Origin: an uncultured Clostridia bacterium
GTDB lineage: Bacteria > Bacillota > Clostridia > TANB77 > CAG-508
Direction of reading: 5' to 3'
DNA: 64,000 nt
NCBI GenBank assembly: GCA_928721565.1
Contig: OV788638.1
Span: 1,666-65,665 of the forward strand
Positions 11,278 to 38,750 of the stretch are shown piece by piece (within the stretch, counting starts at the first letter, position 1; each line of letters starts with the position of its first letter). The position numbers and the translations under genes were made by a program. The notes under the pieces were generated by a model, which was not told where the DNA came from, did no database searches, and saw only the letters and a program-made list of their open reading frames with translations.

Positions 11278-13210
11278 ATGTGTGGAATTGTTGGTTTTGT
11301 AAATTATAAGCAAAACGTCTCAAAATATAAAAATATTTTATTAAATATGAATAACTCTCTTTCACGAAGAGGCCCTGATGAAGACGGTTATTACACAAAA
11401 GATCATGTTGCATTTGGACACAAAAGATTAATAGTAATTGATCCTGAAGGAGGAAAACAACCAATGACATCAATTGTTCCTTTAAGAACCGGTCCCGAAC
11501 GGTCACTTGTTCAAAACAGAACCGGTCCTTAATGAACAAATGCACCAAAGAGAACCGGTCCCTAATGAGCAACACTGTTCAATTGTGTACAATGGTCAAA
11601 TTTATAATACTAAAGAATTAAGACAAACTTTAGAGGAAAATGGATTTACTTTTGAAGGTCATAGTGATACAGAGGTATTATTAAAAAGTTACATTTTTTA
11701 CGGAAAAGATGTAGTTCACCATCTAAATGGTATTTTTGCTTTTGCTATTTGGGATTCTAAAAATGAAGAACTTTTCATGGCTAGGGATCATTTCGGTGTT
11801 AAGCCTTTATTTTATACTATGCAAAATAATTCTTTTATTTTTGCCTCTGAGATTAAGGCTATATTTCAATATCCTGGTGTTCAAAAAATTTTAGATTCTC
11901 AAGGTGTAGCCGAATTATTTGGTATTGGTCCAGCTCATACTCCTGGAACTACTATTTTTAATAATATTTTTGAATTGAAACCTGCTCATTTTGCAGTTTT
12001 CAACCGTTCAGGTCTTCATCTTGAAAGATATTGGAAATTAAAAAGTGCTCCACATACTGAAAATTTCGTCCAAACTTGTGACCATTTAGAATTTCTTCTA
12101 AAAGATGCAATTACTAGGCAGTTGGTCTCTGATGTCCCTTTATGTACCTTTTTGTCTGGTGGATTAGATTCAAGTATTATTACAAAATATGCATCTGATT
12201 ATTGTTTTGAACATAATCTACCACCACTTGATACTTATTCTATTGACTATGTTGATAATGATAAAAATTTTGTAAAGAGTGACTTTCAGCCTAATTCTGA
12301 TAATTACTACATAAATTTGATGGTTAATAAACTTCATACCTCTCATCATCCTATTGTAATTGATACTCCTGAACTTGCAGAATATCTAGAAGATGCAATG
12401 CTTGCTAGAGATATGCCTGGAATGGCTGATATTGATTCTTCTCTTTTATTATTCTGTAAATATGTTAAGCCTACTGCAACAGTTTCTCTTACAGGGGAAT
12501 GTGCTGATGAAATCTTTGGTGGATATCCATGGTTTTTCCGCGAAGATGCTCTTCAAAGTGGAACTTTCCCTTGGTCTATTGCTATTGATGAACGTCAAAC
12601 TTTACTTAATCCACGCATTGCTCAAAAAGTTAATCTTAAAGATTATATAAACTATAGATACACTGAAAGCCTTGACCAAGTTGAAATTCTTGATACTGAT
12701 TCTTTAGAAACTGCTGAAAAAAGAAAAATTTCACACCTTACACTTAATTGGTTTATGCAGACTCTTCTTGACAGATCTGACAGAATGGCTATGTACAATG
12801 GTTTTGAACTACGTGTTCCATTTTGCGATTATCGTTTAGCTCAATATGTTTGGAATATTCCTTGGGAAATAAAAGCTCTTAATGGTAGAGAAAAAGGATT
12901 GCTTCGCTATGTTTCTCGTAAGTTTTTGCCTGCTGAAATTGTGGATAGAAAAAAGAGCCCTTATCCAAAGACTCATAATCCAACTTATTTGGCAAAGGTA
13001 AAATCAATGCTTTCAACTATTATGGCTAATCCTCATGCTCCTATTAATTATCTTTTAAATAAAGATTATATTTTGAGTATTCTTGAAACTGATGGTAAAG
13101 CTTTCTCTAGACCTTGGTTTGGTCAGTTAATGACTGGTCCTCAATTGATGGCGTATTTGTGCCAGGTTAATATGTGGCTTGAAAGGTATCAGCCTAAAAT
13201 CATTTTCTAA
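11278..13210 (+). pseudogene. asnB: Asparagine synthetase (glutamine-hydrolysing) interrupted by a 101-bp repeat insertion after codon 67; the reading frame is broken
   Basis: The N-terminus MCGIVGFVN (catalytic Cys2; RBS GGAGG 10 nt upstream) continues to ...GGKQPMTS and then into repeat sequence, with a stop at 11530-11532. The remainder of AsnB (CSIVYNGQIYN...HSDTEVLL...LSGGLDSS...) continues in a different frame from 11507. Removing 11478-11578 plus one copy of TCAATTGT restores an in-frame ...KQPMTSIVYNGQIYN. Confidence 0.75.
11478..11578. repeat. Three-unit array of the GAACCGGTCC palindromic repeat inserted inside asnB, flanked by an 8-bp direct duplication TCAATTGT (11470-11477 and 11579-11586)
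   Basis: Cores GAACCGGTCC at 11486-11495, 11519-11528 and 11552-11561. The flanking 8-mers are identical, consistent with a target-site duplication. Confidence 0.8.
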
Positions 13211-13245
13211 AATAATAGAGGTCACAAATTGTGACCCCCTTTTTT

Positions 13246-15475
13246 CTATTTTAATGTAAATGTATCTGATAATAAATTTTCTTCATTTGAACTACCGCCA
13301 ACAAAAACTTTAAACTCTCCCTCTTCTGCTTCAAATTTCATGCTTTCATTCCAAAACTTAAGCATCTCTTCAGATATTTCAAATTTCACACCAATTTCTT
13401 CTTTTGGTAAAATTTTCACCTTTTTAAAGGCTTTCAGCTCTTTTACAGGTCTAACTACGCTTCCTACTAAGTCCTGAATATATAATTGAATAACTTCCTC
13501 TCCTACTACATCACTAACATTTTTGACTTTTACATTAACTACTATTTGAGAATGTTTATCCAAAATTTTATTACTTAGTTTTATATCAGAATAAACAAAT
13601 TTAGAATATGATAGTCCAAACCCAAAAGGATAGTAACTTTCCGCTGGAATATCTTGGTAACGTGAAACATATCTCATATTCTTTTTATACGGTCTTCCTG
13701 TATTATAATGATTATAATAAATTGGGCATTGTCCTACAGCTTGAGGAAAACTCATTGTTAATTTTCCTGATGGATTAGTATCACCAAAAACTACATCTGC
13801 AATTGCATTTGCACCTTCTGTTCCGGGGAACCATACCTCTAATAAACCATCTACTTTTTCAGCAATTCCTCTTAATACTATAGGTCTGCCATTAAATATA
13901 ATAGCTACTATCTTTTTGTTTAATTTTGATAATTGTTCTAACAATCTCTTTTGTATATTCGAAATTTCTATATTTGTTCTTGAACACGCCTCACCTGTTT
14001 GCTTATAATGTTCTCCTATTGCTAATACAATTACATCTACACCTTTGGCTATTTTTACTGCCTCCTCTAAGTATTCCTCTAATTTTTCTTTTTCATTTTC
14101 TAAATGAATTACATTTTCTCCATCGGCTTTTAAAATTTCATTTATCTCTTTTTCTTCTAAAATCTCACTGCCTTTTGCATATAATACATTATCTTTTCCT
14201 ATTTTTGATTCAAAAGCTTCTCTTAAAGTTGTAATTTTTGATTTATCTGAAAACATTGACCATGACCCTAATATAGCAATATTGTCAGCATATGGACCTA
14301 TTAATGCGATTTTTTGATTTTTGCATAATGGCAATATATTATTTTGATTTTTTAACAATACAAATGTTTTTGCAGTTAATTCTCTCGCCTTTTTAAAATT
14401 TTCTTCACTTAATAGAACTTTCTTTTCTAAATAGTAATCCATATTTTTATATGGATTTTCAAATAATCCTAATTTATTTTTTAATTTTAAAACTCTTAAA
14501 ACTGCTTCATCAATTATATCCTCAGAAACTAATCCTTCTTCTACTAATTGTTTCAAATTATTTGAATAGACATTTGACATCATATCAATATCTACTCCAG
14601 CAGTAATCGCTTTATAAGCTGCTTCTTTTTTATCTTTGGCAACACCGTGTTCAATTGTTTCTTCAATTGCCGAATAATCTGAAATAACTATTCCTTTAAA
14701 TCCAAGTTCTTTTCTTAGTAAATCTGTTAATAGCCATTTGTTTACAGTTGCAGGAATTCCATTAATAATATTAAATGATGTCATTATCATTTCTGCACCA
14801 CTATCAATTGCTGATTTATATGCCGGCAAATAATATTGTCTAAATTCTCTTTGCGACATGTCAACTGAGTTATAATCTTTTCCCGCTTCTACCGCTCCAT
14901 ATGCCGCAAAATGTTTTACACACGATATAATTCCATCATCCTTATTGCCATTAACTTCTTTATGTGCTTTAACCATATCTTGAGCAAATATTTGCCCTAA
15001 ATATGGGTCTTCTCCTCCAATAGATTCCATAACTCGTCCCCATCTTGAATCTCTAACTAAGTCTACCATTGGCGAAAAATTAACATTTGCTCCGTGCTAC
15101 TTGTGCCTCTTTTGCAGCTAATTTAGTTGATTCATAAACAACTTTGCTATCCCATGAACATCCTTGAGCAAGTGGTATTGGTAGAACAGTTTTATATCCA
15201 TTTATAATGTCTGCCATAAATAGTAATGGTATTTTTAATCTATTTTTGGCTAAATAATTTTCTTGTATTTTTCTAATTTTTTCAGTTCCAACTACATTTA
15301 ATATTGAACCTACATTATACAGCATTTCATTTGAAATTTCTAAATCTTTTAATGGGCCTGTTGAAACTTCAATATCGTCCATCAAAAAAATTTCTCCTGC
15401 AACCTGCACAAGTTGTCCAATTTTCTCTTCTAAAGTCATTTTTTGTATCAATTCATATAATTCTTTTTCTTTCAT
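13246..15475 (-). pseudogene. Glycoside hydrolase family 3 beta-glucosidase (BglX-like), split by a +1 frameshift near 15092-15096
   Basis: The upstream ORF (131 aa) ends ...AKEAQVARSKC*. The downstream ORF (607 aa) starts MVDLVRDSRWGRV... The alternate frame across the junction reads GANVNFSPMVDLVRDSRWGR, which reconstitutes the GH3 motif. One extra nucleotide in 'gcacggagc' accounts for the shift. Confidence 0.8.
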
Positions 15476-16710
15476 ATTTTTATTGATGCCTCCACTTTTG
15501 TAAATTCTAGAATCTCTAATCCTTTTTTCACATATTTATTTTTCATAAAATACTCCCAAATAACTCCAGATAAGTAGTTTTCAATCATTATCATAGAAAT
15601 ACCTTTATCTATTCCTATACACTCTTCTGAAATCCAAGGTTCTGTATTTTCTAAATTATATGCATCTTTAAAACCATATTTTCCCCAAAGCTTATGAAAA
15701 TTATTGTAGTAATTTTCTACTGCCCTAATACTTATATCTGGTGTAAACACTATCGAACCAATTGCACCACAAGGTGCAACAGTTCCATCATTTTGATTAT
15801 CTAAATCTGCCAGTGCTGGCATTGCACCATATCCTCCAGAATATCCTTTTGGACCTACACATGCAGTAAGTCCCCATGAGTTTTCACCATATGTTTTAAA
15901 TCTATTGCTATTTTTTATACAAAATTTTCTATTAGCAAGAGTCGCTCTTCTGGAATTTTCAAACCAATCAATCCCATTCTTATCTTTTAGCCCTCTAAAG
16001 TCAATCCATGCATGAGAATATTGATATGTAAATAAAGTTCCACAATATGTATAAATTATATTTTTTTCATCTAAGTAGTCTTTTTTATCCTTTTTAAAAA
16101 AATCATATAAAACTTTATTAATCGGATAAGTTGGAGATGCCACTCCTAAAATATATAAAATTAATTGTTCTGCATACATATCCCAATGACCTTCAAATCC
16201 TTTTTCTTTAGAATATCCCATATAAAATTGATTAACCTTTTTGTCTACATACCAATTCCAATTTATTTGTTTATATAATAGCTCCGCCTTTTCTTTAACT
16301 TTTCCTCCAAAATATTCACCAGCAAAAATTGCACCACAAATAAATATAGCTGTATCTATAATTGAATTTTCTGAATTCCATTCTCTTTGTGCAGTTTCCA
16401 TATTAATAAAATGATAAAAAAAACCATTTATATTTTCCAAACTATTTAAAAATGTATCTAATGTCCCCTCTACTCTTTCATTAGCTTTTTCATAAGTAAT
16501 CCAATTTCTTTCCACCCCTATTGCTAATGCAGCTAGCCCATATCCAACAGACGCAATACTTGCAATTTCTGGTGCAAAAGCACTTTTGTCTCTAATCAAT
16601 CCATATCCTTTACTTTTTTTATTATTATTTGCTTCTTTTGTAAAAAAATTATAATCCCCTTGTAACTCTTTTTTTAATATATCTATACCTGTAAGAAATT
16701 TTTTCTTCAT
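15472..16710 (-). CDS. Six-hairpin glycosidase-like protein (glucoamylase/GH144-DUF3131-like; possible endo-beta-1,2-glucanase partner of the adjacent GH3)
   Basis: 412 aa from the ATG at 16710 (RBS GGAGGA 5 nt upstream). Motifs YSHAWIDFRG, WGLTACVGPKGY and GYGAMPALADLD resemble the glucoamylase-like (alpha/alpha)6 fold. Family assignment is from memory and uncertain. Confidence 0.45.
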   Translation of the reverse strand: MKKKFLTGIDILKKELQGDYNFFTKEANNNKKSKGYGLIRDKSAFAPEIASIASVGYGLAALAIGVERNWITYEKANERVEGTLDTFLNSLENINGFFYHFINMETAQREWNSENSIIDTAIFICGAIFAGEYFGGKVKEKAELLYKQINWNWYVDKKVNQFYMGYSKEKGFEGHWDMYAEQLILYILGVASPTYPINKVLYDFFKKDKKDYLDEKNIIYTYCGTLFTYQYSHAWIDFRGLKDKNGIDWFENSRRATLANRKFCIKNSNRFKTYGENSWGLTACVGPKGYSGGYGAMPALADLDNQNDGTVAPCGAIGSIVFTPDISIRAVENYYNNFHKLWGKYGFKDAYNLENTEPWISEECIGIDKGISMIMIENYLSGVIWEYFMKNKYVKKGLEILEFTKVEASIKI

Positions 16711-17060
16711 ATTTTCCTCCATAACATAATTATAGTACATTTCTTTTATTATGTTCAATGGAAATTTTTGAGCATAATTTGCTACCACTTGATATTTATT
16801 CTATAGACTATATTAATAAAAGCATACACTTAGTATGTTTTTCCCCTCACAGGGTAAGCCGTTTAACTTTCCTCATTTACTCGCTTGATTTACTATACAA
16901 GGTTACGTATATCTTTTGGGCTTCGACTTGTTAGGTAGCCTTACCCTTTTGCATAGCATTAATGGCGATATATACCTCCAGTACGGACTTTCACCGATTA
17001 GCTAAACAACATGCCTGTCGCACCATATATAAAAGACTAATATGTAATCTTTTTATTTAA

Positions 17061-17366
17061 ACATTCCTGTCTGGTGGATTAAATTTTTGTAAAGAGTGAT
17101 TTTCAGCATAATTCTGATAATTACTACATGTTTGGAATATTCCTTGGGAAATAAAAGCTCTTAATGGTCGAGAAAAAGGTTTGCTTCGATATGTTTCTCG
17201 TAAATTTTTGCCTGCTGAAATTGTGGATAGAAAAAAGAGTCCTTATCCAAAGACTCACAATCCAACTTATTTGGCAAAGGTAAAATCTATGCTCTCAGAA
17301 ATAATGGCTTACCTTTGCCAAGTTAATATGTGGCTTGAAAAGTATCAGCCTACAATGCATATATAA
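17061..17366 (+). pseudogene. Mosaic remnant of a second asnB copy carrying three internal deletions
   Basis: Near-identical to asnB segments 12140s, 12270-12308, 12846-13010 and 13150-13196 joined head to tail. It translates as ...LRYVSRKFLPAEIVDRKKSPYPKTHNPTYLAKVKSML..AYLCQVNMWLEKYQP. Confidence 0.75.
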
Positions 17367-17554
17367 AAATATGCATATAGAACAAAAGCGGACATTAATA
17401 ACTTTTGTACTTATTAAAACATTTTGAAGTCCGCGTCTTTGTTCGTGCGCGAAATTTGCAAAGCAAATTTCTGTGCAATATATTTATATTATAGGAAGTT
17501 CAGAGAACTTTCCTATAATATAAAATAAGTGGGATATAATGTCCCACTTATAAC

Positions 17555-17896
17555 TTACATATAATATATTAATATTCCTAACAGAATAAGCCCATTGCCT
17601 AAGATTTTCTTTTTAGTAATCTTTTCGCCAAGAATTCTATTACTTAAAATCATTACAAAAAGATAACCCAAAGATTCTATTATTGGCTCGTTTTTATAAG
17701 GAACCCCTTTTAGTCCAAACACTACAAGCACAGTTGAGATTACCATTAAAATATAACCTGTTATTACATATACATTTAAATATTCTTTTAAAACTGAATT
17801 ATAAGATTTGGAAGCACTTTTTTTCAAAATAATTTGAGATATTGAGCTTACCAAAACTGCCAAAATCAATAATACTACATATTTATTCATCTTCAT
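17555..17896 (-). CDS. Small 4-TM DMT/SMR-like membrane protein (GtcA/ArnE-ArnF-like lipid-linked sugar flippase subunit)
   Basis: 113 aa with four predicted TM helices. It is paired with a second small DMT protein and lies downstream of the GT2/GT-C cluster. Confidence 0.5.
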   Translation of the reverse strand: MKMNKYVVLLILAVLVSSISQIILKKSASKSYNSVLKEYLNVYVITGYILMVISTVLVVFGLKGVPYKNEPIIESLGYLFVMILSNRILGEKITKKKILGNGLILLGILIYYM

Positions 17897-18281
17897 TATT
17901 CACTATAATTGTTCCTATTATTACAATTAATACTCCTATTACATTTTTTATTGTTATTGTATCATTAAATATTAGAATTGCCCATACAATTGACCAAAGT
18001 AATCCCATAGCTTTATTTGCATACGCTATTGAAATATCAAATTTTTTTAATAATTGTTGCCAAATAATTGCATATACACCTAAAATCATCATTTCTATTC
18101 CATAGTATAATATAAATTGAAATGACATAAATTCTTGGCCTGATGCAAATTTAGCACAAACAGTTGATAATGTATATATTGCAATAACAATCTGAAGAAT
18201 ACATATATCTTTTAACTTTGTTTTCTTCTTTTTTTCGTTATCTAACTTTACTAATTTTGTTTTATCTACTTCTTCATTCAT
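17883..18281 (-). CDS. Small 4-TM DMT/SMR-like membrane protein (second flippase-like subunit)
   Basis: 132 aa with a hydrophobic EamA-like half-domain. It overlaps the next gene by 14 nt. Confidence 0.5.
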   Translation of the reverse strand: MNEEVDKTKLVKLDNEKKKKTKLKDICILQIVIAIYTLSTVCAKFASGQEFMSFQFILYYGIEMMILGVYAIIWQQLLKKFDISIAYANKAMGLLWSIVWAILIFNDTITIKNVIGVLIVIIGTIIVNNEDE

Positions 18282-18301
18282 TAGAAATTAATTCTCCTTT
18301 T

Positions 18302-19429
18302 CTAAATTGCTAAAATATAATATCCATATCTTGTTGAGCTATCAACAATTTTATGAGAATTTATTTTTTCTATTGGACTCACATAATAAATATATTCCGG
18401 ATGCTCTTTTTTTACTTTTTCTAGTTCTTCTATATCTGCTTCTGTAAAAATGAATTTGATAACCGCCTTTTTAGGTTCTACAACTTTTGTAAAATCTGGG
18501 GCATTTCCTAAAGCAACATCTATAACCATTTTTAAAAAATCATATCCTGTTGAAATTTTTACTAAATCTGAGCCTATGCAATCTCCACCCATTCTAGCCC
18601 CAATTTCAATTATCTTTACTTTTCCATCAGATGTAATTTTAAATTCTGCATGTGATGCTCCATTTGTAATTTGTAAACTATTTAATCCTGCAAAAACTTC
18701 TTTTTTTATTTTCTCTAACATTTCTGAATCTAATCCTGCCGGTTGAGTATGTCCTGTTTCTATAAAATGTGGTGCACCTGTTGTTTGCTTTCTAGTTACT
18801 GTCAACAATGTATGTTTTCCTTTATACGAAATACTTTCAGCACTAAACTCATCTCCAGTTATATATTCTTCTATAATAGCCATTTTTTCAAATGAAACCT
18901 CAACAGCTGTTTCTATTGCTTCTTTTAACTTTCCAGATTTTACTTCTTCCCAATTCTCTATTTTATTGATTGATCTGCTTCCAGACCTATCTGTTGGTTT
19001 TACAATAATTGGCATTGAAAAATCACTTATTTTAGATATTTCTTCTTTTCCTGTACCTGTAACTTTTGCAAATTTAGGAACTGATACTCCATTTGTTAAA
19101 AATGCATTTCGCATTTCATATTTATTTGTAGATAATTTTGTACATTCAAGGCTATTTCCTACAAGTCCTAATTTATCTGCCAAATAGTTTACTGTTAATG
19201 TGGCCAAATCTGATGCAACTGAAATAACCGCATCTGGCTTTATTTCTTTACATTTATCTAATATCTTATCTTTTTCTACTATACTTATTGGATAAAAATA
19301 ATCTGCAAAGTCAGCACCAACAGCACCTTCTACCCAAGCAAATACATGCGTTTCATACCCTAGTTCTTTAGCTTTTATTATGAGTGGCATCTGAAAATTA
19401 TTTGCTCCTATAATAACAATTTTTTTCAT
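18302..19429 (-). CDS. ATP-grasp domain ligase
   Basis: 375 aa with an ATP-grasp fold (MPIIVKPTDRSGSRSI...IEEYITGDEFSAESI...HFIETGHTQPAG...IIEIGARMGGD). Confidence 0.7.
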   Translation of the reverse strand: MKKIVIIGANNFQMPLIIKAKELGYETHVFAWVEGAVGADFADYFYPISIVEKDKILDKCKEIKPDAVISVASDLATLTVNYLADKLGLVGNSLECTKLSTNKYEMRNAFLTNGVSVPKFAKVTGTGKEEISKISDFSMPIIVKPTDRSGSRSINKIENWEEVKSGKLKEAIETAVEVSFEKMAIIEEYITGDEFSAESISYKGKHTLLTVTRKQTTGAPHFIETGHTQPAGLDSEMLEKIKKEVFAGLNSLQITNGASHAEFKITSDGKVKIIEIGARMGGDCIGSDLVKISTGYDFLKMVIDVALGNAPDFTKVVEPKKAVIKFIFTEADIEELEKVKKEHPEYIYYVSPIEKINSHKIVDSSTRYGYYILAI

Positions 19430-19463
19430 TTAGAAACTTCCTTTCTTCCACTTGATTAGTGAA

Positions 19464-20600
19464 TTAATTAGTTTTTTCATAAAATTCTTTTATTGCTTTT
19501 ATTACTTTATCTTGTTCTTTTTGAGTTAATCCATAATACATTGGCAATCTTACTAGCTTTTCACTCTCAGCTGTTGTATATTTATCTTCTCCATTAAACC
19601 TTCCAAATCTCTTTCCTGCAGGAGAATCATGTAATGGAATATAATGAAATACAGATTGTATTTCATTTTCTTTTAAGTATTTAATCAGTGCTGTTCTTTC
19701 TTCTAGATTTTTCGCTTTTATGTAAAACATATGTGCATTATGAGTACTATATTCTGGAACATATTGTAATGTTATTTTTCCACTATTTTCTAGTTCTTGT
19801 AAATTTTCTTTATAATACTCCCATGCAGATAATCTTGCATTATTAATTTCTTCTGCCATTTCAAGTTGAGGATATAAATATGCACAATTTAATTCGCTTG
19901 GCAAATATGATGAACCATAATCTACCCATGTATATTTATCAATTTCTCCTCTAAAGAATTTATTTCTGTTAGTTCCTTTTTCTCTTATTATTTCAGCTCT
20001 TTCTATCAATTCTGGATCATTTATTACAATAGCTCCACCTTCTCCCATGCTGTAATTTTTAGTTTCGTGAAAACTATAACATCCAAGATCTGCAATTGTC
20101 CCTAAATATTTTTCTTTGTATTTAGACATAAAACCTTGTGCTGCATCTTCTACAACTTTTAAATTATGTTTCTTAGCAATTTTCATAATTTTATCCATAT
20201 CTGGTGAAATTCCTGCATAGTGAACTACTGCAATCGCTTTAGTTTTAGGCGTTATTGCTTCTTCAATTTTATTTTCATCAATATTCATTGTTTTAGGATT
20301 TATATCTACAAAAACAACTTTTGCCCCAACCATAATAAATGCATCTGCTGTTGATACAAATGTATATGATGGCATTATTACTTCATCTCCTGGTTGTAAA
20401 TTCAATAAAATTGCAGTCATCTCAAGAGCATCAGTACAAGATGTTGTTAATAATACTTTTGTGGCATTAAATTTATCTTCCATCCATTTACTACATTTTT
20501 TTGTAAATTCTCCATCTCCACAAATTTTTCTACTTTTTATTGCTTTTTTTATACAATCTAATGAACCTTCTACATAAATTGGTATATTAAATCCTATCAT
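19464..20600 (-). CDS. DegT/DnrJ/EryC1/StrS-family PLP-dependent sugar aminotransferase (ArnB-like)
   Basis: 378 aa with motifs TTSCTDALEMT, VIMPSYTFVSTA and SFHETKNYSMGEGG (PLP-lysine region). Confidence 0.85.
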   Translation of the reverse strand: MIGFNIPIYVEGSLDCIKKAIKSRKICGDGEFTKKCSKWMEDKFNATKVLLTTSCTDALEMTAILLNLQPGDEVIMPSYTFVSTADAFIMVGAKVVFVDINPKTMNIDENKIEEAITPKTKAIAVVHYAGISPDMDKIMKIAKKHNLKVVEDAAQGFMSKYKEKYLGTIADLGCYSFHETKNYSMGEGGAIVINDPELIERAEIIREKGTNRNKFFRGEIDKYTWVDYGSSYLPSELNCAYLYPQLEMAEEINNARLSAWEYYKENLQELENSGKITLQYVPEYSTHNAHMFYIKAKNLEERTALIKYLKENEIQSVFHYIPLHDSPAGKRFGRFNGEDKYTTAESEKLVRLPMYYGLTQKEQDKVIKAIKEFYEKTN

Positions 20601-20621
20601 TTTTATCCTCTTCTTTCTATT

Positions 20622-21965
20622 TTAGTTATAAGCCGGTATTACATATGAGAATATCGCTTTAAATGATATTGCAATAATTAATAACATTATCATTATAATT
20701 ATAATATTTCTTATTTTTTCTGACTTTATAAATTTTTCTAGCATTGTCTGAATTCCATTTACCACAAAATACATAAATGGTATTATAATTCCCATTATAT
20801 ATCTACCCTGTGGTTGAAAATCACTTGTATATGAATATATAATACTTAAAAGTATTGGTATAATAATTGCTATTACAAAAATATAATTTAAAATATATTT
20901 ACTTTTTTCCTCTTTTTTATAAATAAATAAATCTTTAAATTTTAATAAACATCCAAGTCCTCCTATTGACCAAAGGCTCAAATATGAATAATATATTTTA
21001 TTTGACGTTAATATACTCTGATATCCGAATATTCCCACAAAACTTTTGACTGTTGTCTTAGCCCATGCATCTTCATTTAACATGTGCCAAATGCTTTCAT
21101 TACTACTTTCTGGTGTTTTTCTTACTGATGGCTTATATTGTTCTAAAGCATATTTATCTCCATATTCATTTTGTGTCTTGGTTCCTAATATATCTCCATC
21201 ATAAATTATTGCATTCCTTACAAACCACCAACCAGCAACTGCAAAAGCTACACTTGCTACTATTAAAGCTTTTTTTGCAATTTCTTTTGCATCCATTTTG
21301 TTCAAAACAGCTGAACTTAAGCAAATTAATACACTACATAGAATATATCCATATGCATTGTAATATGTTAAAGCACAAAAACCAACTGCTCCACCTAGTA
21401 ATATACAATGTTTTGTTTTCCAATTGCTTTCCAATCCTAATATCCATAAATAAATTATCATAGATATTGCTAAAATTGCAGTTGAATCATTATTTATATA
21501 CGAAGCTAAAAATGCAGTTATTGGCTGAAATGCAATAAATACTATAAATAAATATTTGTAAATTCCTTTATCTTTAAAAAGTTTATTCGCAATCTTTATT
21601 ACAAAGTATATTGTCAATGTCATACTTATTGTACTTACAAGCCTTGCCGCTACTACTAATGCAAATTGTTGTGTAGTAAAAATTGATGCTATCTTTACAA
21701 ATACTGCACAAATCATATATGTAAGAATTGGTTGAAACGCATACGAAATTCCCCAAGCTGAATCTCGTATACTTTCATCTCTTCCATCTGGTATTGAATT
21801 ATGTTCTGCAATATATTTACAAATATCCCATTTCATTTTTTCGTCTGGGCATGAATTATATGGTTGTGATACTGTCCATATTAAATAATAACAAAATAAA
21901 CCAATTAAAAATATAGCCATTACAATTTTCTTATTTTTTTTGCATATTTCTAAAATTTTATCCAT
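20622..21965 (-). CDS. GT-C fold membrane glycosyltransferase (ArnT/YfhO/PMT-like)
   Basis: 447 aa and more than 10 TM helices. An N-proximal periplasmic loop carries a DE motif (SCPDEKMKWDICKYIAEHNSIP), as in GT-C enzymes that use polyprenyl-phosphate sugar donors. Confidence 0.6.
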   Translation of the reverse strand: MDKILEICKKNKKIVMAIFLIGLFCYYLIWTVSQPYNSCPDEKMKWDICKYIAEHNSIPDGRDESIRDSAWGISYAFQPILTYMICAVFVKIASIFTTQQFALVVAARLVSTISMTLTIYFVIKIANKLFKDKGIYKYLFIVFIAFQPITAFLASYINNDSTAILAISMIIYLWILGLESNWKTKHCILLGGAVGFCALTYYNAYGYILCSVLICLSSAVLNKMDAKEIAKKALIVASVAFAVAGWWFVRNAIIYDGDILGTKTQNEYGDKYALEQYKPSVRKTPESSNESIWHMLNEDAWAKTTVKSFVGIFGYQSILTSNKIYYSYLSLWSIGGLGCLLKFKDLFIYKKEEKSKYILNYIFVIAIIIPILLSIIYSYTSDFQPQGRYIMGIIIPFMYFVVNGIQTMLEKFIKSEKIRNIIIIMIMLLIIAISFKAIFSYVIPAYN

Positions 21966-22908
21966 TGTTAGTTTTTTCTCCCTTTTCCACTTTTTCTATA
22001 ATATATGGTGGTCTTTTTCTTGCTGCATCAAAAGTTCTCCATAAATACTCTCCAAGTATTCCAATTGATAACATTATAATTCCAAATCCCACTAACATAA
22101 TTATAATAATCGATGCATATCCCTCAACATCAATTATTCCTGTCATTTTTTTATAAATTATAATTACCAACCAAATTAGTGCTATAAAAAAGCTTAAAAT
22201 TCCTACTGTAGTTATCATTTTTATAGGAAAATATGAAAAACTTAATAGAGAATCATATACTAATTTGATTTTTTTAGATAATGTCCATCTTGATTTTCCT
22301 ATTTCTCTTTTTTTTCTAACATATGAAACAGTTGATGTTTCAAAACCTGCCCATAAAATTTGACTCATTAATGAAGTATTGCTTTCTTGAATTTTTACTA
22401 AAAAATCTATAACCTGTCTATCTATTAAAAATGAATCAAATCCTCCTTTTGGCATATTGTGTAATGCTAGTTTTCTCATTAAAAATGCATATAAGTTTGA
22501 AAATGCTTTTTGCGTAACAGGCTCATCTCTATCTGCTCGTACAGCTAAAACAACTTTACTTCCTTCAATATATTTTTTAATCATATCTAATATCATTTCT
22601 GATGGCTCTTGCAAGTCAGCAGCTTTCCTTACAGCGCAATCTCCAGTGCATTGAGACAATCCTGCCAAAATTGCAGAATGTTCTCCAAAATTTCTTGATA
22701 ATCTTATTGTTTTTATATTAGAATCAATTTTTGCTAGCTCTTTCATTACTTTATACGAATTATCTTTTGATCCATCATCAACAAATATTAATTCATATTC
22801 TATTCCTTCTGGTAATTTTGTAAGTACTTTTTCCTTTAAGTCAGCATATAATGGCAAAAGATTGTCTTGATTATAATATACTGGAACTACTATTGAAATT
22901 TTTTTCAT
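21958..22908 (-). CDS. GT2 polyprenyl-phosphate sugar synthase (CsbB/ArnC/GtrB-like)
   Basis: 316 aa. GT-A signature SIVVPVYYNQDNL...IFVDDGSKDNS, two C-terminal TM helices, and an 8-nt overlap with the GT-C gene. Confidence 0.85.
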   Translation of the reverse strand: MKKISIVVPVYYNQDNLLPLYADLKEKVLTKLPEGIEYELIFVDDGSKDNSYKVMKELAKIDSNIKTIRLSRNFGEHSAILAGLSQCTGDCAVRKAADLQEPSEMILDMIKKYIEGSKVVLAVRADRDEPVTQKAFSNLYAFLMRKLALHNMPKGGFDSFLIDRQVIDFLVKIQESNTSLMSQILWAGFETSTVSYVRKKREIGKSRWTLSKKIKLVYDSLLSFSYFPIKMITTVGILSFFIALIWLVIIIYKKMTGIIDVEGYASIIIIMLVGFGIIMLSIGILGEYLWRTFDAARKRPPYIIEKVEKGEKTNNG

Positions 22909-22988: not shown

Positions 22989-25823
22989 TTACGAAATAAA
23001 ATGTTTTAAAAATTTTCCTGTATAACTTTTCTCGTTTTTGCAAATTTGTTCAGGAGTTCCTACAGCAATGACTTCTCCTCCTGCGTCTCCGCCCTCTGGG
23101 CCTAAATCAATTATGTGGTCTGCTGTTTTAATTAAGTCTAAATTGTGTTCAATAACTATAATTGAATTTCCTGTATCTACTAATCTTTGTAGAATATCTA
23201 CCAATCTGTGAACATCTGCAATGTGTAATCCTGTTGTAGGTTCGTCCAAAATATACAAAGTCTTGCCAGTAGCACGTTTAGACAATTCTGTTGCAAGTTT
23301 TACACGTTGTGCTTCTCCACCTGATAATGTTGTTGATGGTTGTCCCAATTTGATATATCCAAGTCCTACATCATATAATGTTTGGATTTTGTTTTTAATC
23401 TTAGGAATATTCTCAAAGAATCCTAATGCCTCTTCTACTGTCATATCTAATACATCTGCAATATTCTTTCCCTTATATTTTACTTCTAGAGTTTCTCTAT
23501 TGTATCTCTTTCCTTTACATACTTCGCAAGGCACATAAACATCTGGTAAGAAGTGCATTTCTATTTTATGAACACCATCACCATTACAACTTTCACATCT
23601 TCCACCAGCAACATTAAAGCTGAATCTGCCTTTAGCATATCCACGCATTTTCGCTTCATTTGTTCCAGCAAATATATCTCTTATTAAATCAAATGCCCCT
23701 GTATATGTTGCAGGATTTGAACGAGGTGTTCTACCTATTGGAGATTGATCAATATTGATGATTTTGTCTATATTATTCAATCCTTTTATTTGCTTGCACT
23801 TTCCTGGTTTTTCACTTGCACCATTTAATTGTTGTGCTATATTTTTATATAAAACTTCATTTACTAGTGTACTCTTTCCAGAACCAGATACACCCGTAAT
23901 ACAAGTAAACACTCCTAATGGAAATTTCACACTAATATTTTTCAAATTGTTTTCTGTTGCTCCAACAACTTCTATACACTTTTTATTTCCTTTTCTTCTT
24001 TTTGATGGTACATGAATCTGCTTTCTGCCACTTAAGTAATCACCTGTAATTGAACCTTTAACTTGCTTGATTTCTTCAGCAGTACCTTGTGCCATAACAT
24101 TTCCACCATGTACACCAGCACCTGGACCAATATCTATAATTTGGTCTGCTGCATACATTGTATCTTCATCATGTTCTACAACAATTAATGTATTTCCTAA
24201 ATCTCTTAATTTTTTTAATGTTGCAATTAACTTGTCATTATCCCTTTGATGAAGCCCTATACTTGGCTCGTCCAAAATATATAAAACTCCTGTTAATCCT
24301 GAACCTATTTGAGTTGCTAAACGAATACGTTGAGCTTCTCCTCCTGATAATGTTCCAGCACTTCTTGATAATGTTAGATATTCTAGTCCAACATCAATTA
24401 AGAATTGAAGTCTTGCATCTACTTCTTTTAAAATCATTTCTGCAATCATTTTTTGAGAATCTGTCAATTCTAGATTTCTCAAGAATTGTTGAATTTGTCT
24501 AATTGACATATCTGTCAACTCATTGATATTTTTTCCTCCAATTTTGATGCACAAAATCTCTTTTTTCAATCTTGCCCCATTACATTCATCACAATGCATA
24601 TTACTCATATACATTTCGTAAAAATCTCTCATGCCTTGAGATTTTGTTTCATTATGACGTCTTTCAAGTGTAGGAATCACACCTTCAAATGGTGCCGTAA
24701 ACTTACGAACTCCAGCATATGATGAATATTCAAAATCGATTTCTTCATCGCCAGTTCCATAAAGAATTTTATCAAGAAAATCTCTAGGCAAATCCTTTAT
24801 TTTCTTATTTTTAATATCAACTCCATAATGTTCTCCAATGCTTTCAAAGTACATTCTTGCCATTGTGTCGCCCTTTTTCATTGTACTTGAACCAAAAGCT
24901 TTTACACCATCATATAAAGTCTTATTTTTATCAGGAATAATTAAATCCTCATCCATTTTCATTAAATATCCTATACCTGAACACTTTGGACAAGCTCCAT
25001 ATGGATTATTAAATGAAAACATTCTAGGTGTTAATTCTGGAAAACTGAAACCACAATCAGGACATGCATAATTACAGCTATATAAAATTGTTTTATTTCC
25101 TACAACATCAATTAAAACCAGATTATCTGCATGTTTTAATGCTACTTCAATTGACTCTGTAAGTCTTGCTGTAATCTCTGACTTGATAACTAACCTATCA
25201 ACAACAATTTCAATTTCATGTTTTTTCTTTTTATCTAGTTTAACATCATCCATTTCTGTTAAATCATATATTTCGCCGTCAACTCGAACTCTTGCAAAAC
25301 CATCTTTTTGTAAATCTTCAAATAGTTTAGTATACTCACCTTTTCTACTGCGAACAACTGGAGCCAAAACTTGTATTCTAGTTCCCTCTTTTAGTTTCAT
25401 AACATTATCAACAATTTGGTCAATTGACTGTTTTTCAATCCTTTTACCACAATTAGGACAATATGGCACACCAACTCTTGCATATAAAAGACGAATATAA
25501 TCGTAAATTTCAGTAACTGTTCCAACAGTAGAACGTGGATTTTTAGAAGTCGTCTTCTGATCAATTGAAATAGCAGGAGAAAGTCCCTCAATAGATTCAA
25601 CATCAGGTTTTTCCATCAATCCCAAAAATTGGCGAGCATATGAAGATAAGCTCTCAACATATCTTCTTTGTCCTTCTGCATACAATGTATCAAAAGCCAA
25701 AGAAGACTTTCCAGAGCCTGAAAGTCCTGTAATCACAACTAGTTTATCCCTTGGTATCTCTAAATTTATATTTTTCAAATTATGTTCTTTTGCACCTTTT
25801 ATTATTATTTTGTCATTCATCAT
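22989..25823 (-). CDS. uvrA: Excinuclease ABC subunit A
   Basis: Start trimmed to the ATGATG preceded by AAAGAGGTG. Two ABC ATPase modules ([18 protein letters not shown]), zinc fingers ([13 protein letters not shown]) and LSGGEAQR signatures. Confidence 0.95.
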
Positions 25824-25880
25824 TTTCACCTCTTTGTCTCTCAACATTTTTATTATACAATATTTTTATTTTTTTGGCAA

Positions 25881-26061: not shown

Positions 26062-27747
26062 CTAGAATATTGTTACCCTAAATCCAATACTCCAATATGC
26101 TTGTGTGCTAGTATTATTGCTCCTACTGTTTACACTAATATCAGTTGAATCACTACTTTCATATGCTCCACCTCTTATAACACAAGGTTGCCTACTAACA
26201 TTTGAATTTTCAAGAGTCCACTCCCATACATTTCCTCCTAAATCAAATATACCTTGTTTTGCAAATCCTACAATTGTTCCTGTTGTTAATAATGTAGACC
26301 CTGCAGCCGATTTATCATATGGTGCCTGCAACCATGTTGAGCCATTGTTTAATGAATATTGAGCACTTGTATTTGAAATATTATATTTGCTTGCTTTATA
26401 ATTTCCCCAATCTGTACTATTTGTCTTTAATTGTGATTGAATTGTTCCTATTGCCGTTCCTTCTGCAACTGATTTTACTTCTATATACTTTTGTACTAAA
26501 TCCCATTGTATACCGAACATTAAACTTCCAGAATGTCCATTTGTACTTGCTTTACTTGCTAATGTTTGAGCTTCTGTACAAGTTACCCAATTTAATGGAT
26601 ATTGATTTGCTTTAGACATTGGCACTAGAGTTGCAGTTGAAGTATTACTGTTTCTCTTTGTATCTGTTCCAGCTTCATATCTAGCTATATAAAATCCTCC
26701 ATTCTGATATACACTCTTTAACATTTTTCGTTTCAATTCGGTATATGCACTATCTGACAATCCTATTGAATTACTAGTCGAATAAGTATCAGTTGCTGAT
26801 GTTCCATTTCTATAAGATGCTGTATATTCTTTTAAATCACTTTCAATCTTTGTATACTCCTCATCCGAAAAATCTTTAATACTTATTCCTGCATTCGGAT
26901 ATACATTTGCTAATCTAGGCACTTCTACCCATACATATTGATTCTCTGAATCATCTTGAATTATCAATCCAGTCTCCAAATTTGTTCCTTCAACTTGTTT
27001 AAATTCTGAGCTTGGCAAATATGGTCTGGTTCCTGGTCCACTTGGCAAATTTCCCGTTCCACCTTGAATTTCCTCATTAGCTTGATAAGAATCAATACTC
27101 AAAGTTATGCTCATTGCAGAAACAGCATCTGGATTATCGTTAAAATATTTTCCTACTATATATCCCCATTGTGAATCCAAATCATCATTATCACCAATCC
27201 AATTGGCAGTTACTTTTAAATACGCCTTATCTTTTGCAGCAACCTGTAAAGAATGTTTTACTTTTAATGAAAACGGAAATCTCGTTGTATCACTAATTAT
27301 TGTTCCAACAGATACAAGTTCTCCAGTTTCTTCATCATTTTCAAGTGTTGGGTTTGATATTATGATATAGTTTTCAGATGTTGGTTGCTTTCCTTCATGA
27401 ACCACTTCATATTGTACGCCTGCTATTGATATTGCCTGTATATCATAACTTAAATCAACTAAAGCTTCACCTTTATTCAATATATCAACTGTTACTGTCT
27501 GTTCTGGCATTTGTGGATATAATGTTGGAAAATCAATTCCTATAGGATTTTCTTTTTTCTCATCTCCAATATAATACTCCATATCCCAAGCAGCCACATG
27601 TATATTCAAATGTGTATTCAATATTTTGGAATATGCCAACCATGCAAATGTAGTCATTATAAGGGCAAAAATAACCAACACATATTTTCGAAATTTATTT
27701 TTTTTATTTTGATTTGATTTTCTGTGTTTACGTAATAAATTCTTCAC
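26062..27747 (-). CDS. Secreted protein with a SipW-cognate-type signal peptide and a C-terminal FGE-sulfatase (SUMF1/DUF323)-like domain
   Basis: The N-terminus has a basic stretch plus TM ending TTFAWLAYSKILNT (YAWF-class motif). The C-terminus has GGNVWEWT...VIRGGAYESS...SIGFRV, the hallmark of the formylglycine-generating-enzyme fold. Confidence 0.6.
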   Translation of the reverse strand: MKNLLRKHRKSNQNKKNKFRKYVLVIFALIMTTFAWLAYSKILNTHLNIHVAAWDMEYYIGDEKKENPIGIDFPTLYPQMPEQTVTVDILNKGEALVDLSYDIQAISIAGVQYEVVHEGKQPTSENYIIISNPTLENDEETGELVSVGTIISDTTRFPFSLKVKHSLQVAAKDKAYLKVTANWIGDNDDLDSQWGYIVGKYFNDNPDAVSAMSITLSIDSYQANEEIQGGTGNLPSGPGTRPYLPSSEFKQVEGTNLETGLIIQDDSENQYVWVEVPRLANVYPNAGISIKDFSDEEYTKIESDLKEYTASYRNGTSATDTYSTSNSIGLSDSAYTELKRKMLKSVYQNGGFYIARYEAGTDTKRNSNTSTATLVPMSKANQYPLNWVTCTEAQTLASKASTNGHSGSLMFGIQWDLVQKYIEVKSVAEGTAIGTIQSQLKTNSTDWGNYKASKYNISNTSAQYSLNNGSTWLQAPYDKSAAGSTLLTTGTIVGFAKQGIFDLGGNVWEWTLENSNVSRQPCVIRGGAYESSDSTDISVNSRSNNTSTQAYWSIGFRVTIF

Positions 27748-36624: not shown

Positions 36625-37803
36625 TTAATGTTCTGGTTTGCTTAATCCAAGATTCAAAGTTAAACCTTGTCCAAGTGAAGCATAGTTGATACAGTCAGGA
36701 TCTTGACCTTCTATCCATACATATACTCTTACTTTTTGATATTGGTTTGCTATCATTTGAATAGGAGTAGTTCCATCTTTAACACTCATTAAATCTATTG
36801 AATCACTTCTTGTATCAGCTGCAGTTGTTTGAGTTGTATTTTGTTTAGTTAATCCTGCTGCAGGTGTTTTCCAGTCATATACATCTGCTATAGTTCCAGC
36901 TGTTTTTGAAGCTGCTGTTAAAGCATATGTAGGTAATTTTTTTCCATCAGTGAATGGTGATATTCCTGCTGCATTAGCAGTTAATCCATATGTAGTATTA
37001 TCATTAGCTAATAATTTAAGAGAGTTTGCTTTAGAGTTTACTATGTTAGCAACGTGTTCTTCAGCATTTGGTTCCCAAATAGCTACATCTGATATATTTT
37101 TTCCTGTTGATGTTCCTGCTATTATTGCTGCTTGATCTGGTTCTGTTGTTTGACCAATTTTCATTGTCTCTCCTGCATTTTCATATAAAGCAAGTCCAAT
37201 TCTTGCAGTATTTTGAATACCTGTTGCTTCATTTACACCTAATAAATCAGATGTTGCATCTAATTGAAGTTTATCTGAAGTAACTCCTGTTGTTGAAGTA
37301 TTCATCAAATATAAATCAAAAGCAAAATATCCTGAAGCTTTTTCTTCTGCTGCTGTAGCGATTTCTTTTAAACCTGCTGAATCTGTATATTTACCATTAT
37401 ACATTACTAAACCTGTTGTTCCTATTCCTTCATTTGTAGCTCCTGTTGTTGAAACTGGTAAATATTCTGCTGGTACTATATTTGTAATTCCTTCTGCTGG
37501 TGATTGGAATGTTTTTTCATCATCTAAATATGTTGTAGTTGCAGTTGTGCTTACTGTCCAATTGTCTGCATCTGTTTGAACAAAATCATCAAATTTAATT
37601 GAATTTACCCAGTGTTTTGCATCTAGTGAAATTTGCAAACCTTCTGCTACATTTACTTGACCTTTTAGTCCACTTAGCATAACATTTCTCTGTGTAGAGA
37701 ACCATGCATATGTTGATACTATCAATAAGATAGCTGTAAATGCTACTAATAAAATTAAAGCATTTAATCTTTTTCTTGAGTTTCTTTCATTGTTTTCTCT
37801 CAT
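36625..37803 (-). CDS. Secreted protein with a SipW-cognate signal peptide (TasA/camelysin-class substrate), 392 aa
   Basis: N-terminus ...ALILLVAFTAILLIVSTYAWFSTQRNV (YAWF motif). It is Thr/Ala-rich and predicted beta-rich. The C-terminal motif is VYVWIEGQDPDC. Confidence 0.6.
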   Translation of the reverse strand: MRENNERNSRKRLNALILLVAFTAILLIVSTYAWFSTQRNVMLSGLKGQVNVAEGLQISLDAKHWVNSIKFDDFVQTDADNWTVSTTATTTYLDDEKTFQSPAEGITNIVPAEYLPVSTTGATNEGIGTTGLVMYNGKYTDSAGLKEIATAAEEKASGYFAFDLYLMNTSTTGVTSDKLQLDATSDLLGVNEATGIQNTARIGLALYENAGETMKIGQTTEPDQAAIIAGTSTGKNISDVAIWEPNAEEHVANIVNSKANSLKLLANDNTTYGLTANAAGISPFTDGKKLPTYALTAASKTAGTIADVYDWKTPAAGLTKQNTTQTTAADTRSDSIDLMSVKDGTTPIQMIANQYQKVRVYVWIEGQDPDCINYASLGQGLTLNLGLSKPEH

Positions 37804-37964
37804 TTTTTCTTCCTTCCTTTTCTTTTATTTTCTTTTTTATATTTGTAAATTTTATAAACATATTTACTCTTTTGTACCTATTTCTTGTTGCACAAAAGTT
37901 TTAGTTTGTAAATTGTTCATTTGAGAACCAATCCCTAATGACTCAAATGGCACAAACTTGAATT

Positions 37965-38750
37965 TTATCTTTTGTTTTGTGGAACTTCATCATTTTGCAA
38001 GATATGTTCTTCAGTTAGAGTCATATGCATTTTTATTTCTCCACCTATTAAATCATCTTTGCATTCTGGGTCGTCCCCTTCTACCCAAATAACAACAGTC
38101 CATTTATCAATGTCACCAACTTTGAAGTTCTCTGATAAATCTAGCATTACGGTATCATCATTTTTGAATGCCACTGTATCTGGTTCAGGTTGTCCTGTTT
38201 CTCTGTTGTTTTTTGCGTAAATAACTTTGTTGTCATTTTTGAAAACCATAACTCTGATTGCTTCATCAACATTTTTTACTACATCATCTATTTTTATGGT
38301 TGTCCAATAGTTAATAGTATCTTGCCCCATATTTTCTGCATAAAATGTATATGCTATGTAGTTTCTACCATTATGTGAGCCATCACCTTCGTTGTTTATA
38401 TTTTCTGGTAGCCAGTTAACTGATATATCTGTAAAAAAGTCTATATCTTTTGATCTTAAAAATGTTCTTGTATATTTATTAGTTTGATCTTCGTATATTA
38501 CTAAGCCACTTTCTCTTCCATATTCACTATCAAGTGTTACTGTAAAATTTTCGCCCCTATAAAATATTGATAAGATAATATATATATTTATCAAAAATAT
38601 TACTATTATCCCTAATATTACTCTAAAAGCTATTTGCCTGGTCTTTTTTCTTTTTTCCTTTTTTGCCTTTTCTTCTAATTTTTGACCGGCTGTTGTTTCA
38701 TCAATTTGTTTTTCAAGTGTTTCTTCGTTTTTTGTTGTTTCATTTGCCAT
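37965..38750 (-). CDS. Membrane-anchored protein (type II topology) with a possible SipW-type cleavage region and a C-terminal W-V-E-G-D-D-P-E-C motif
   Basis: A K/E-rich N-terminus, one TM helix (ILGIIVIFLINIYIILSIF), then YRGENF. The C-terminal VVIWVEGDDPEC is paralogous to the motif in the 36625 gene. Confidence 0.5.
   Translation of the reverse strand: MANETTKNEETLEKQIDETTAGQKLEEKAKKEKRKKTRQIAFRVILGIIVIFLINIYIILSIFYRGENFTVTLDSEYGRESGLVIYEDQTNKYTRTFLRSKDIDFFTDISVNWLPENINNEGDGSHNGRNYIAYTFYAENMGQDTINYWTTIKIDDVVKNVDEAIRVMVFKNDNKVIYAKNNRETGQPEPDTVAFKNDDTVMLDLSENFKVGDIDKWTVVIWVEGDDPECKDDLIGGEIKMHMTLTEEHILQNDEVPQNKR

Follow-up and report, generated by a model that had tools for sequence, protein, structure and literature searches.

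To what end does an uncultured Clostridia bacterium keep enzymes that appear to tailor an amino sugar in one operon with proteins that appear to carry and transfer sugars at the membrane? The question is raised by six genes at positions 17555-22908 of a 64,000-nucleotide stretch of contig OV788638.1 (assembly GCA_928721565.1), referred to below as the window. The reading favored here, at a probability of roughly 0.6, is an Arn-like carrier-lipid, or "three-component", glycosylation operon that would attach an N-acylated 4-amino-4,6-dideoxyhexose to some component of the envelope outside the membrane, as judged from sequence comparison, structure models, and analogy with characterized pathways.

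The genes encode, in order, a GT2 glycosyltransferase, a polytopic protein of the DUF2142 family, a DegT aminotransferase, an ATP-grasp ligase, and two small EamA proteins, EamA-1 and EamA-2 (Table 1). Six minus-strand open reading frames (ORFs) occupy the interval exactly, in agreement with the six-gene cluster that a first-pass annotation had drawn there. Read from GT2 to EamA-2, the first two ORFs overlap by 8 bp, the next three junctions are gaps of 21, 34, and 20 bp, and the last two ORFs overlap by 14 bp, a spacing that is operon-like; a terminator-like hairpin (17551-17525) lies directly past the stop codon of EamA-2.

The GT2 protein matches PF00535 (4.3e-23) and, in a phmmer search of the PDB, aligns over its full length with GtrB (5EKP, 5e-51), ArnC (9HWJ, 2e-39), and DPMS (5MLZ). 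Because these full-length matches are to polyprenyl-phosphate glycosyltransferases, its sequence places it in the class of undecaprenyl-phosphate (Und-P)-sugar synthases (GtrB/CsbB/ArnC/DPMS), and the polyprenyl-phosphate assignment made at first reading holds. Two hydrophobic segments at the C-terminus of the translation are read as transmembrane (TM) helices. The best NCBIfam models are PgfS at 202 bits (cut-off 500) and ArnC at 162 bits (cut-off 529).

The aminotransferase points to the sugar. It matches PF01041 (DegT) at 2.7e-90 and scores 623 bits against the WecE model NF008687 (cut-off 375), with residues 1-374 aligned to positions 1-374 of the 375 in the model, and 612 bits against TIGR02379 (cut-off 435). 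An ArnB identity was tried and rejected, the score against NF008658 being 189 bits with a cut-off of 631. Of the Arn-like DegT aminotransferase first proposed, the DegT assignment stands and the likeness to ArnB does not. By its sequence, the enzyme is a WecE equivalog, predicted to convert a dTDP-4-keto-6-deoxyhexose into a dTDP-4-amino-4,6-dideoxyhexose; because it is WecE-type and not ArnB, the latter is the predicted sugar, rather than 4-amino-4-deoxyarabinose (Ara4N). Separately, a second, shorter DegT-like protein (about 343 aa) is encoded beside the WecE gene in four related loci (L040 8965-9996, L052 10332-11366, L055 6582-7610, and L075 10851-11882); it scores far under all aminotransferase equivalog thresholds.

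The ATP-grasp protein would act on the amino group so formed. It matches PF13535 (ATP-grasp_4) at 5.5e-24, and its nearest PDB sequences are the uncharacterized 4DIM followed by the L-amino-acid ligases BL00235 (3VOT), YwfE/BacD, and RizA. An AlphaFold2 (AF2) model with a predicted local distance difference test (pLDDT) score of 86.6 has its Foldseek neighbors in the same order as the sequence search. The protein carries the conserved motifs H260-x-E262 and E275-IGAR279-MGG, which align with the ligase motif VIEVGARIGG of 3VOT, and K144, E187/E188, H260, E262, E275, and R279 are invariant across 52 ATP-grasp sequences. Sequence and model agree in indicating an ATP-grasp fold with the carboxylate-amine ligase motifs intact. 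The protein is L-amino-acid-ligase-like, and by analogy it is proposed to be the N-acylase of the 4-amino sugar.

A PurK or PurT identity, which the first-pass annotation had put forward as a possible refutation of its interpretation, failed by a wide interval: the protein scores 39 bits against the PurT model NF006766 (cut-off 339), 23 bits against TIGR01142 (cut-off 502), and 20.5 bits against the PurK model NF004679 (cut-off 326). Its Ddl score is likewise far under the NCBIfam threshold. These scores, together with the nearest structures, effectively exclude a housekeeping role. The automatic cluster names of its relatives are generic or wrong, an example being "carbamoyl-phosphate synthase large subunit".

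The family is large and tight, with 7850 proteins at E ≤ 1e-10 among 8000 candidates scored and, when one representative is kept per 50%-identity cluster, 671 at E ≤ 1e-30. Its fusions link it to sugar and carrier-lipid chemistry. The ATP-grasp domain is fused to EamA in P0179 (EamA at residues 400-497) and L060 (507 aa, 3 TM helices), to a phosphoglycosyl transferase (PGT) in P0258, which is 40% identical to the window ATP-grasp, to a short-chain dehydrogenase/reductase (SDR) epimerase/dehydratase in P0192, and to a hexapeptide acyltransferase in P0167; one further fusion joins a second ATP-grasp. A separate observation concerns two Blautia sp. proteins of 722 aa (P0155 and P0543), in which a relative with 56% identity is fused to a pyridoxal phosphate (PLP) enzyme of the D-cysteine desulfhydrase/CuyA/ACC-deaminase (PALP) family. 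The P0155 fusion might hint at which acyl donor that lineage employs, and it is too ambiguous to be relied on.

Precedents for such a tailoring enzyme exist. In the Pat/Pyl pathway of B. cereus, which makes UDP-yelosamine, an ATP-grasp enzyme joins 2-oxoglutarate to the 4-amino group of a UDP-linked 4-amino-4,6-dideoxy sugar (PMC11257628); the work is that of Hwang et al. 2014, considered here by its title as cited in PMC8987622. In Neisseria, the ATP-grasp/phosphoglycosyltransferase PglB2 is needed for glyceramido-acetamido-trideoxyhexose (GATDH), and PglB carries an acetyltransferase domain where PglB2 has the ATP-grasp (PMC11130364). Pairs of DegT and ATP-grasp genes also occur in Wzx/Wzy-type loci of Enterococcus hirae and in one Bacteroides finegoldii locus. 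Because of these four cases, the aminotransferase/ATP-grasp pair is a known kind of sugar-tailoring module. The acyl group need not be an amino acid, because the precedents use 2-oxoglutarate (Pyl) or a glyceroyl link (PglB2); of the first suggestion, acylation of an amino sugar with an amino acid or carboxylate, the acylation is kept as a proposal and the amino acid becomes one option among several.

The polytopic protein has about nine or more TM helices and matches PF09913 (DUF2142) at 4.6e-10, 39.3 bits with a cut-off of 30.1. DUF2142 proteins are also present in streptococcal rhamnose-polysaccharide (rgp) loci (PMC9746298). In the orthologues, Pfam finds PMT_2 (PF13231) in 11 of 23 and DUF2142 in 10 of 23, and PF13231 is matched by those orthologues only, not by the window protein. 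A search of PDB sequences with the single sequence returned five chance-level matches only (E about 1), and a search with a profile of 23 sequences returned no match; because these searches gave nothing meaningful, AF2 and Foldseek were needed for the fold. A first search for homologues gave 96-99%-identical sequences only, a second used a profile of distant orthologues, and the alignment behind the model holds 122 sequences.

The resulting model has a pLDDT of 94.2 and a predicted template modeling (pTM) score of 0.93. When it was compared with the PDB by Foldseek, the 43 top-ranking matches were nearly all GT-C glycosyltransferases, with probabilities of 0.99-1.0 overall and of 1.0 for the OST, ArnT, PMT, ALG, and Emb enzymes. 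They include the oligosaccharyltransferases (OST) STT3/AglB/PglB, ArnT, DPY19, ALG9/12, Pmt, Emb, and AftB/D, and two of the 43 are PIG-U, a GPI-transamidase subunit of the same fold. The superposition on ArnT (5F15) gives a TM-score on the query of 0.53 and a root-mean-square deviation of 5.9 Å. The model thereby shows a GT-C fold for the DUF2142 protein. Residues P40-D41-E42 lie in the first extracytoplasmic loop and are near-invariant overall and invariant in smaller orthologue sets, D41-E42 being conserved at 90% or more across the 122 sequences; R108, N158/D160, R250, D258, D382, and Q386-G-R-Y389 are also invariant or near-invariant. This pattern fits a GT-C active site. Of the YfhO/ArnT-like GT-C originally described, the fold is borne out, ArnT being among the neighbors, and the YfhO label gives way to a DUF2142/PMT_2-type protein.

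The two small proteins are the candidate flippase. EamA-2 matches PF00892 at 6.4e-10 (39.9 bits, cut-off 28.2), while EamA-1, which has a Lys-rich N-terminal tail, falls slightly under that cut-off (6e-06, 27 bits). The NCBIfam scores of EamA-1 are 32.6 bits for ArnE, 23.7 for ArnF, and 23.5 for the small multidrug resistance (SMR) protein EbrB, all under cut-offs, and those of EamA-2 are 29 bits for ArnE and 18 for ArnF. A GtcA/GtrA identity is rejected, neither protein having a PF04138 match; the pair of 4-TM proteins foreseen by the first-pass annotation is present, as an ArnE/F-like rather than a GtcA-like pair. Sequence thus assigns the candidate flippase role to ArnE/F-like EamA half-transporters, a family other than GtrA/GtcA. 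Of the Pfam families named at the outset, PF00535, PF01041, and PF13535 were recovered, and neither PF04138 nor PF02222 occurs in the window proteins.

Is this combination of genes a chance arrangement of one genome? When one genome per species was scanned, an ATP-grasp relative turned up in at least 275 species representatives, and synteny was analyzed by tblastn and clustering for the best 80. The WecE gene lies immediately upstream of the ATP-grasp gene in 59 of the 80, EamA-2 and EamA-1 occur together in about 68 of 81 loci, and the ATP-grasp gene adjoins the EamA genes in almost all loci. When counts are restricted to the 50 of these best 80 loci whose flanks extend 5 kb or more in each direction, WecE is present in 45, GT2 in 47, the EamA genes in 41 and 43, and a polytopic protein 400 aa or longer in 48. 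The possibility that the cluster is not conserved as a unit, raised when it was first described, is contradicted by this co-occurrence.

The polytopic partner is the variable component. It is DUF2142 in 36 of the 50 well-flanked loci; other partners are a DUF2142-like form of 630 aa, unannotated proteins that have 7-12 TM helices and measure about 570 or 590 aa, and PgfM-like proteins of 800-1000 aa. Such exchange of the partner would be expected of a constant donor module that serves a varying acceptor. RmlA (TIGR01207, 448 bits) lies inside the cluster in six loci and an SDR dehydratase/epimerase in 17, which supports a dTDP-6-deoxyhexose precursor.

The closest relatives of the window, at 97% identity, are uncultured Clostridia metagenome-assembled genomes (MAGs) from Hadza gut samples, and human gut metagenomes, Hadza and Nepali ones among them, are the source of variants whose genes are 94-99% identical to those of the window. 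Gene order is kept for all six in MAGs from Hadza and Nepal gut samples, at identities of 61-100%, and metagenomic contigs with 67-70%-identical copies hold the same six; a clade at 67% identity has the same genes with the GT2 gene divergently oriented. Flanking genes vary among lineages, and because the flanks differ the module is seen to move as a unit. All of the best 80 loci are labeled Clostridia except for one Bulleidia and one Alistipes contig.

Those two loci, L042 (Bulleidia sp.) and L044 (CAVFGF010000001.1, labeled Alistipes onderdonkii), have nearly the gene order of the Lachnospiraceae locus L041, and the Alistipes label of L044 is probably a binning or labeling error. In L041 (Anaerosacchariphilus hominis, 11809-18036), and likewise in L042, L044, L050, and L053, a second glycosylation set adjoins the module and encodes a GT2 of 384 aa, a Big/GDPD protein, and a member of the GtrA family. 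In L041 and L053, one or two CotH-kinase-like proteins come after it, and this second set may be linked to spore or surface-layer assembly.

From the families and folds of the six proteins, the operon structure, and the conserved synteny, we infer a five-step route, including the order of acylation and GT2 steps, the acyl donor, the heterodimeric flippase, and the acceptor. The WecE-type enzyme would transaminate dTDP-4-keto-6-deoxyglucose, presumably made by rmlA/rmlB-type genes outside the window, to dTDP-4-amino-4,6-dideoxygalactose (dTDP-Fuc4N) or its gluco epimer dTDP-Qui4N. The ATP-grasp enzyme would then activate a small carboxylic acid (an amino acid, 2-oxoglutarate, or a hydroxy-acid) as an acyl-phosphate and amidate the 4-amino group, which would drive the transamination forward and yield the donor recognized by GT2; this step would correspond to formylation by ArnA, acetylation by WecD, and the joining of 2-oxoglutarate by Pyl. 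Next, the GtrB/ArnC-type GT2 would move the sugar onto undecaprenyl phosphate and an EamA-1/EamA-2 heterodimer, ArnE/ArnF-like, would flip the lipid-linked sugar. Finally, the DUF2142 GT-C would pass it to an outside acceptor, which may be a wall polysaccharide, a teichoic acid, a glycolipid, or a protein.

Several points weigh against this route. It assumes a supply of precursor, and rmlA and rmlB were not found within the 64-kb window; tblastn searches of the window with RmlA, with the SDR of the related clusters, and with the alternative GT-Cs gave no match. The GT2 protein falls under every NCBIfam equivalog cut-off, and its sugar specificity is not fixed by them, just as the choice between the Fuc4N and Qui4N stereochemistries cannot be read from the sequence. 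ArnE and ArnF are the best named relatives of both EamA proteins, weakly (18-33 bits, with cut-offs of 92 for ArnE and 99 for ArnF), and the pair could export something else. Lastly, the fusions of ATP-grasp to EamA would fit acylation of the lipid-linked sugar just as well.

That last point leads to a variant of the same pathway in which the ATP-grasp would act after GT2, acylating Und-P-linked Fuc4N at the cytoplasmic face before flipping, in the position of ArnD. The fusion to EamA-1 in P0179 and L060 and the placement of the ATP-grasp gene beside the flippase genes in almost all loci are what this order would lead one to expect, but the precedents work on nucleotide sugars (Pyl on UDP-4-amino sugars, PglB2 by fusion upstream of a PGT domain) and the other fusions are with soluble nucleotide-sugar enzymes, the SDR and the hexapeptide transferase. 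Acylation at the nucleotide level would also account for driving an unfavorable transamination. Late acylation is therefore judged unlikely.

A second alternative bears on the acceptor only. Here the GT-C would modify adhesins, S-layer proteins, or other proteins that are secreted or lie at the surface, by a Pgf-like protein O-glycosylation, and not a wall polymer or lipid. The best NCBIfam match of the GT2 protein is indeed S. mutans PgfS at 202 bits, the polytopic partner of some related loci resembles PgfM2/PgfM1 (85 and 56 bits), and the structural neighbors of the GT-C include the protein glycosyltransferases OST, PMT, and DPY19. All of these Pgf scores, however, are far under cut-offs of 500-1500 bits, ArnT, Emb, and Aft, whose acceptors are lipids or polysaccharides, rank just as well among the structural neighbors, and DUF2142 proteins occur in the streptococcal rgp loci (PMC9746298). 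Such a Pgf-like system is judged improbable.

Very improbable is a separate metabolic pair (purine or dipeptide) formed by the aminotransferase and the ATP-grasp, or the export of their small-molecule product by the EamA pair: ATP-grasp_4 enzymes of the L-amino-acid-ligase type usually make dipeptides and EamA proteins are often metabolite exporters, but the PurT and PurK scores fall far short of the cut-offs (39 against 339 and 20.5 against 326 bits), the aminotransferase is a strong WecE equivalog and hence a nucleotide-sugar enzyme, some loci have RmlA and SDR genes within the cluster, and the WecE, ATP-grasp, GT2, EamA, and polytopic genes co-travel across orders of Clostridia while their flanks change.

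The favored glycosylation pathway invites a more specific and more tentative suggestion, for which the odds are clearly less than even: that gut Clostridia of humans and animals possess an unrecognized pathway in which the ATP-grasp adds a charged acyl group to a 4-amino-6-deoxyhexose and Arn-like machinery delivers it to lineage-specific acceptors. Its carriers could be Lachnospiraceae, Oscillospirales, and low-GC uncultured lineages, and either an amino acid or 2-oxoglutarate, the by-product of the transaminase, could serve as the acyl group. If true, this pathway would be the Gram-positive commensal counterpart of Ara4N addition or D-alanylation and would tune surface charge, susceptibility to antimicrobial peptides and phages, and recognition by the host immune system. 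The effects on surface charge, cationic-peptide resistance, and phage masking proposed in the first-pass annotation, together with its teichoic-acid acceptor, are speculation at this stage. Most surface glycans of gut Clostridia have yet to be charted, although they determine the receptors open to phages, how the immune system recognizes the cell, and how well the cell resists peptides of the host. The module is widespread among these bacteria, its carriers include the cultivable Laedolimicola ammoniilytica, Hominiventricola filiformis, and Anaerosacchariphilus hominis, and the swapping of GT-C partners makes it a tractable system for the re-targeting of a donor module to new acceptors.

Table 1. 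Features of the glycosylation operon, in window coordinates and in order of transcription
Feature	Position	Strand	Description
GT2 polyprenyl-phosphate glycosyltransferase (GtrB/ArnC/PgfS-like)	21958-22908	-	316 aa, PF00535
GT-C-fold polytopic glycosyltransferase, DUF2142 family	20622-21965	-	447 aa, PF09913 and AF2/Foldseek
WecE-type PLP (DegT) aminotransferase	19464-20600	-	378 aa, PF01041 and WecE equivalog models
ATP-grasp carboxylate-amine ligase, L-amino-acid-ligase type	18302-19429	-	375 aa, PF13535
EamA-1, half-size EamA/drug-metabolite transporter (DMT) protein, ArnE/ArnF-like candidate flippase subunit 1	17883-18281	-	132 aa, 4 TM
EamA-2, half-size EamA/DMT protein, ArnE/ArnF-like candidate flippase subunit 2	17555-17896	-	113 aa, 4 TM
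Terminator-like hairpin and T-run, closing the operon	17525-17551	-	10-pair stem, 4 G-C pairs; consensus match only

The window has a G+C content of about 29% and carries most of its genes on the minus strand. The upstream neighbor of the operon is uvrA (22989-25847), and downstream a 766-bp gap separates it from a glucoamylase-like gene, which is followed by a split GH3 gene. A polysaccharide or teichoic-acid locus was looked for near the operon, and Pfam searches of ten further window ORFs found unrelated or unknown proteins only. The 766-bp gap, bounded by the terminator on one side and the glucoamylase-like gene on the other, contains a match to the group II intron D1-D4 fragment RF02001 of Rfam (16859-17021, minus strand; 35 bits, gathering score 32). 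Because no ORF for an intron-encoded protein is found close to it, this fragment is probably a remnant.

The GH3 beta-glucosidase gene (13246-15475, minus strand) is divided into two ORFs, one of 131 aa holding the start of the N-terminal domain and one of 607 aa holding the rest. The same split (131 and 608 aa) occurs in the 97%-identical MAG locus L006. An arrangement of this kind points to a frameshift, to a pseudogene, or to an error in the sequencing. A 561-aa protein encoded between uvrA and a Na/Ca exchanger gene (26062-27747, minus strand) has a C-terminal FGE-sulfatase-like domain (3.6e-07) and, in its translation, a basic and hydrophobic N-terminal segment that is signal- or pilin-like to the eye. 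Farther away, a co-directional run of ORFs (36625-50315, minus strand) may be a defense or mobile island; six of the seven ORFs scanned have no Pfam match, and the seventh has DUF2357 only (43978-45102). A giant ORF of more than 4015 aa (51922-63969, minus strand) reaches the end of the window.

A comparison of the operon with known systems sets it beside two of them. It shares with Arn (PmrHFIJKLM), the pathway by which Gram-negative bacteria add 4-amino-4-deoxy-L-arabinose to lipid A, the gene types and the logic of the steps: a 4-aminotransferase, N-acylation, a GT2 acting on Und-P, two small DMT/SMR-like subunits, and a GT-C on the outside. The differences begin with the sugar, the WecE-type enzyme standing in place of ArnB and a dTDP-6-deoxyhexose being predicted in place of the UDP-pentose of Arn. 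An ATP-grasp ligase replaces the ArnA formyltransferase, and both the ArnA dehydrogenase and the ArnD deformylase are missing, so that the acyl group presumably stays on; Pfam and NCBIfam found no ArnA- or ArnD-like domain among the six operon proteins, as had been stated of the cluster at first reading. The DUF2142 GT-C does not have the periplasmic domain of ArnT and resembles it in fold only, the host belongs to the Clostridia, and the acceptor is probably not lipid A. The relatives of ArnC, ArnE, and ArnF in the operon score under the equivalog cut-offs and are to be taken as homologous or analogous proteins, not as equivalogs.

The Gram-positive three-component systems (CsbB/GtcA/YfhO of B. 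subtilis, GtlA/GtlB of Listeria, CsdAB/CflA of L. lactis, and Pgf of S. mutans) follow the same scheme of GT2, flippase, and GT-C, with a wall polymer or a protein as the target of the GT-C. They use common UDP-hexoses or UDP-N-acetylhexosamines and have no sugar-tailoring enzymes, and their flippase is a single GtrA/GtcA protein (PF04138), whereas the operon has an ArnE/F-like pair and a GT-C other than YfhO. With regard to Pgf in particular, the window GT-C has no PgfM match, and PgfM-like proteins occur only in some related loci, far under cut-off. Strictly, the operon is a member of neither the Arn nor the Gram-positive three-component systems.

The tailoring steps have their own relatives. 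In the synthesis of enterobacterial common antigen (ECA), dTDP-Fuc4N is immediately N-acylated. The operon has the WecE step in common with ECA, its aminotransferase being above the WecE threshold, but WecD is an acetyl-CoA-dependent enzyme of the GNAT family, whereas the proposed acylator of the operon is an ATP-grasp ligase, and ECA proceeds through a cytoplasmic glycosyltransferase acting on lipid II and a Wzx/Wzy route. PglB2 offers an ATP-grasp in place of an acetyltransferase for N-acylation at C4, and P0258 has the same domain architecture, a likeness of architecture only; unlike the ligase of the operon, PglB2 has a PGT as its fusion partner and supplies an undecaprenyl-diphosphate (Und-PP)-linked, PglO-dependent protein glycosylation. 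Pat/Pyl, likened here by its description, pairs an aminotransferase with a carboxylate-ligating ATP-grasp on a 4-amino-4,6-dideoxy sugar, as the operon would. It uses a UDP-2-acetamido sugar and then a phosphoglycosyl transferase (the Und-PP route), whereas for the operon a dTDP-linked sugar without the 2-acetamido group and an Und-P/GT-C route are predicted. A description of this gene combination was not found in the literature searched. What would be new in it is the joining of a Pat/Pyl-like ATP-grasp N-acylation to an Arn-like delivery by carrier lipid and GT-C, each of which is known separately.

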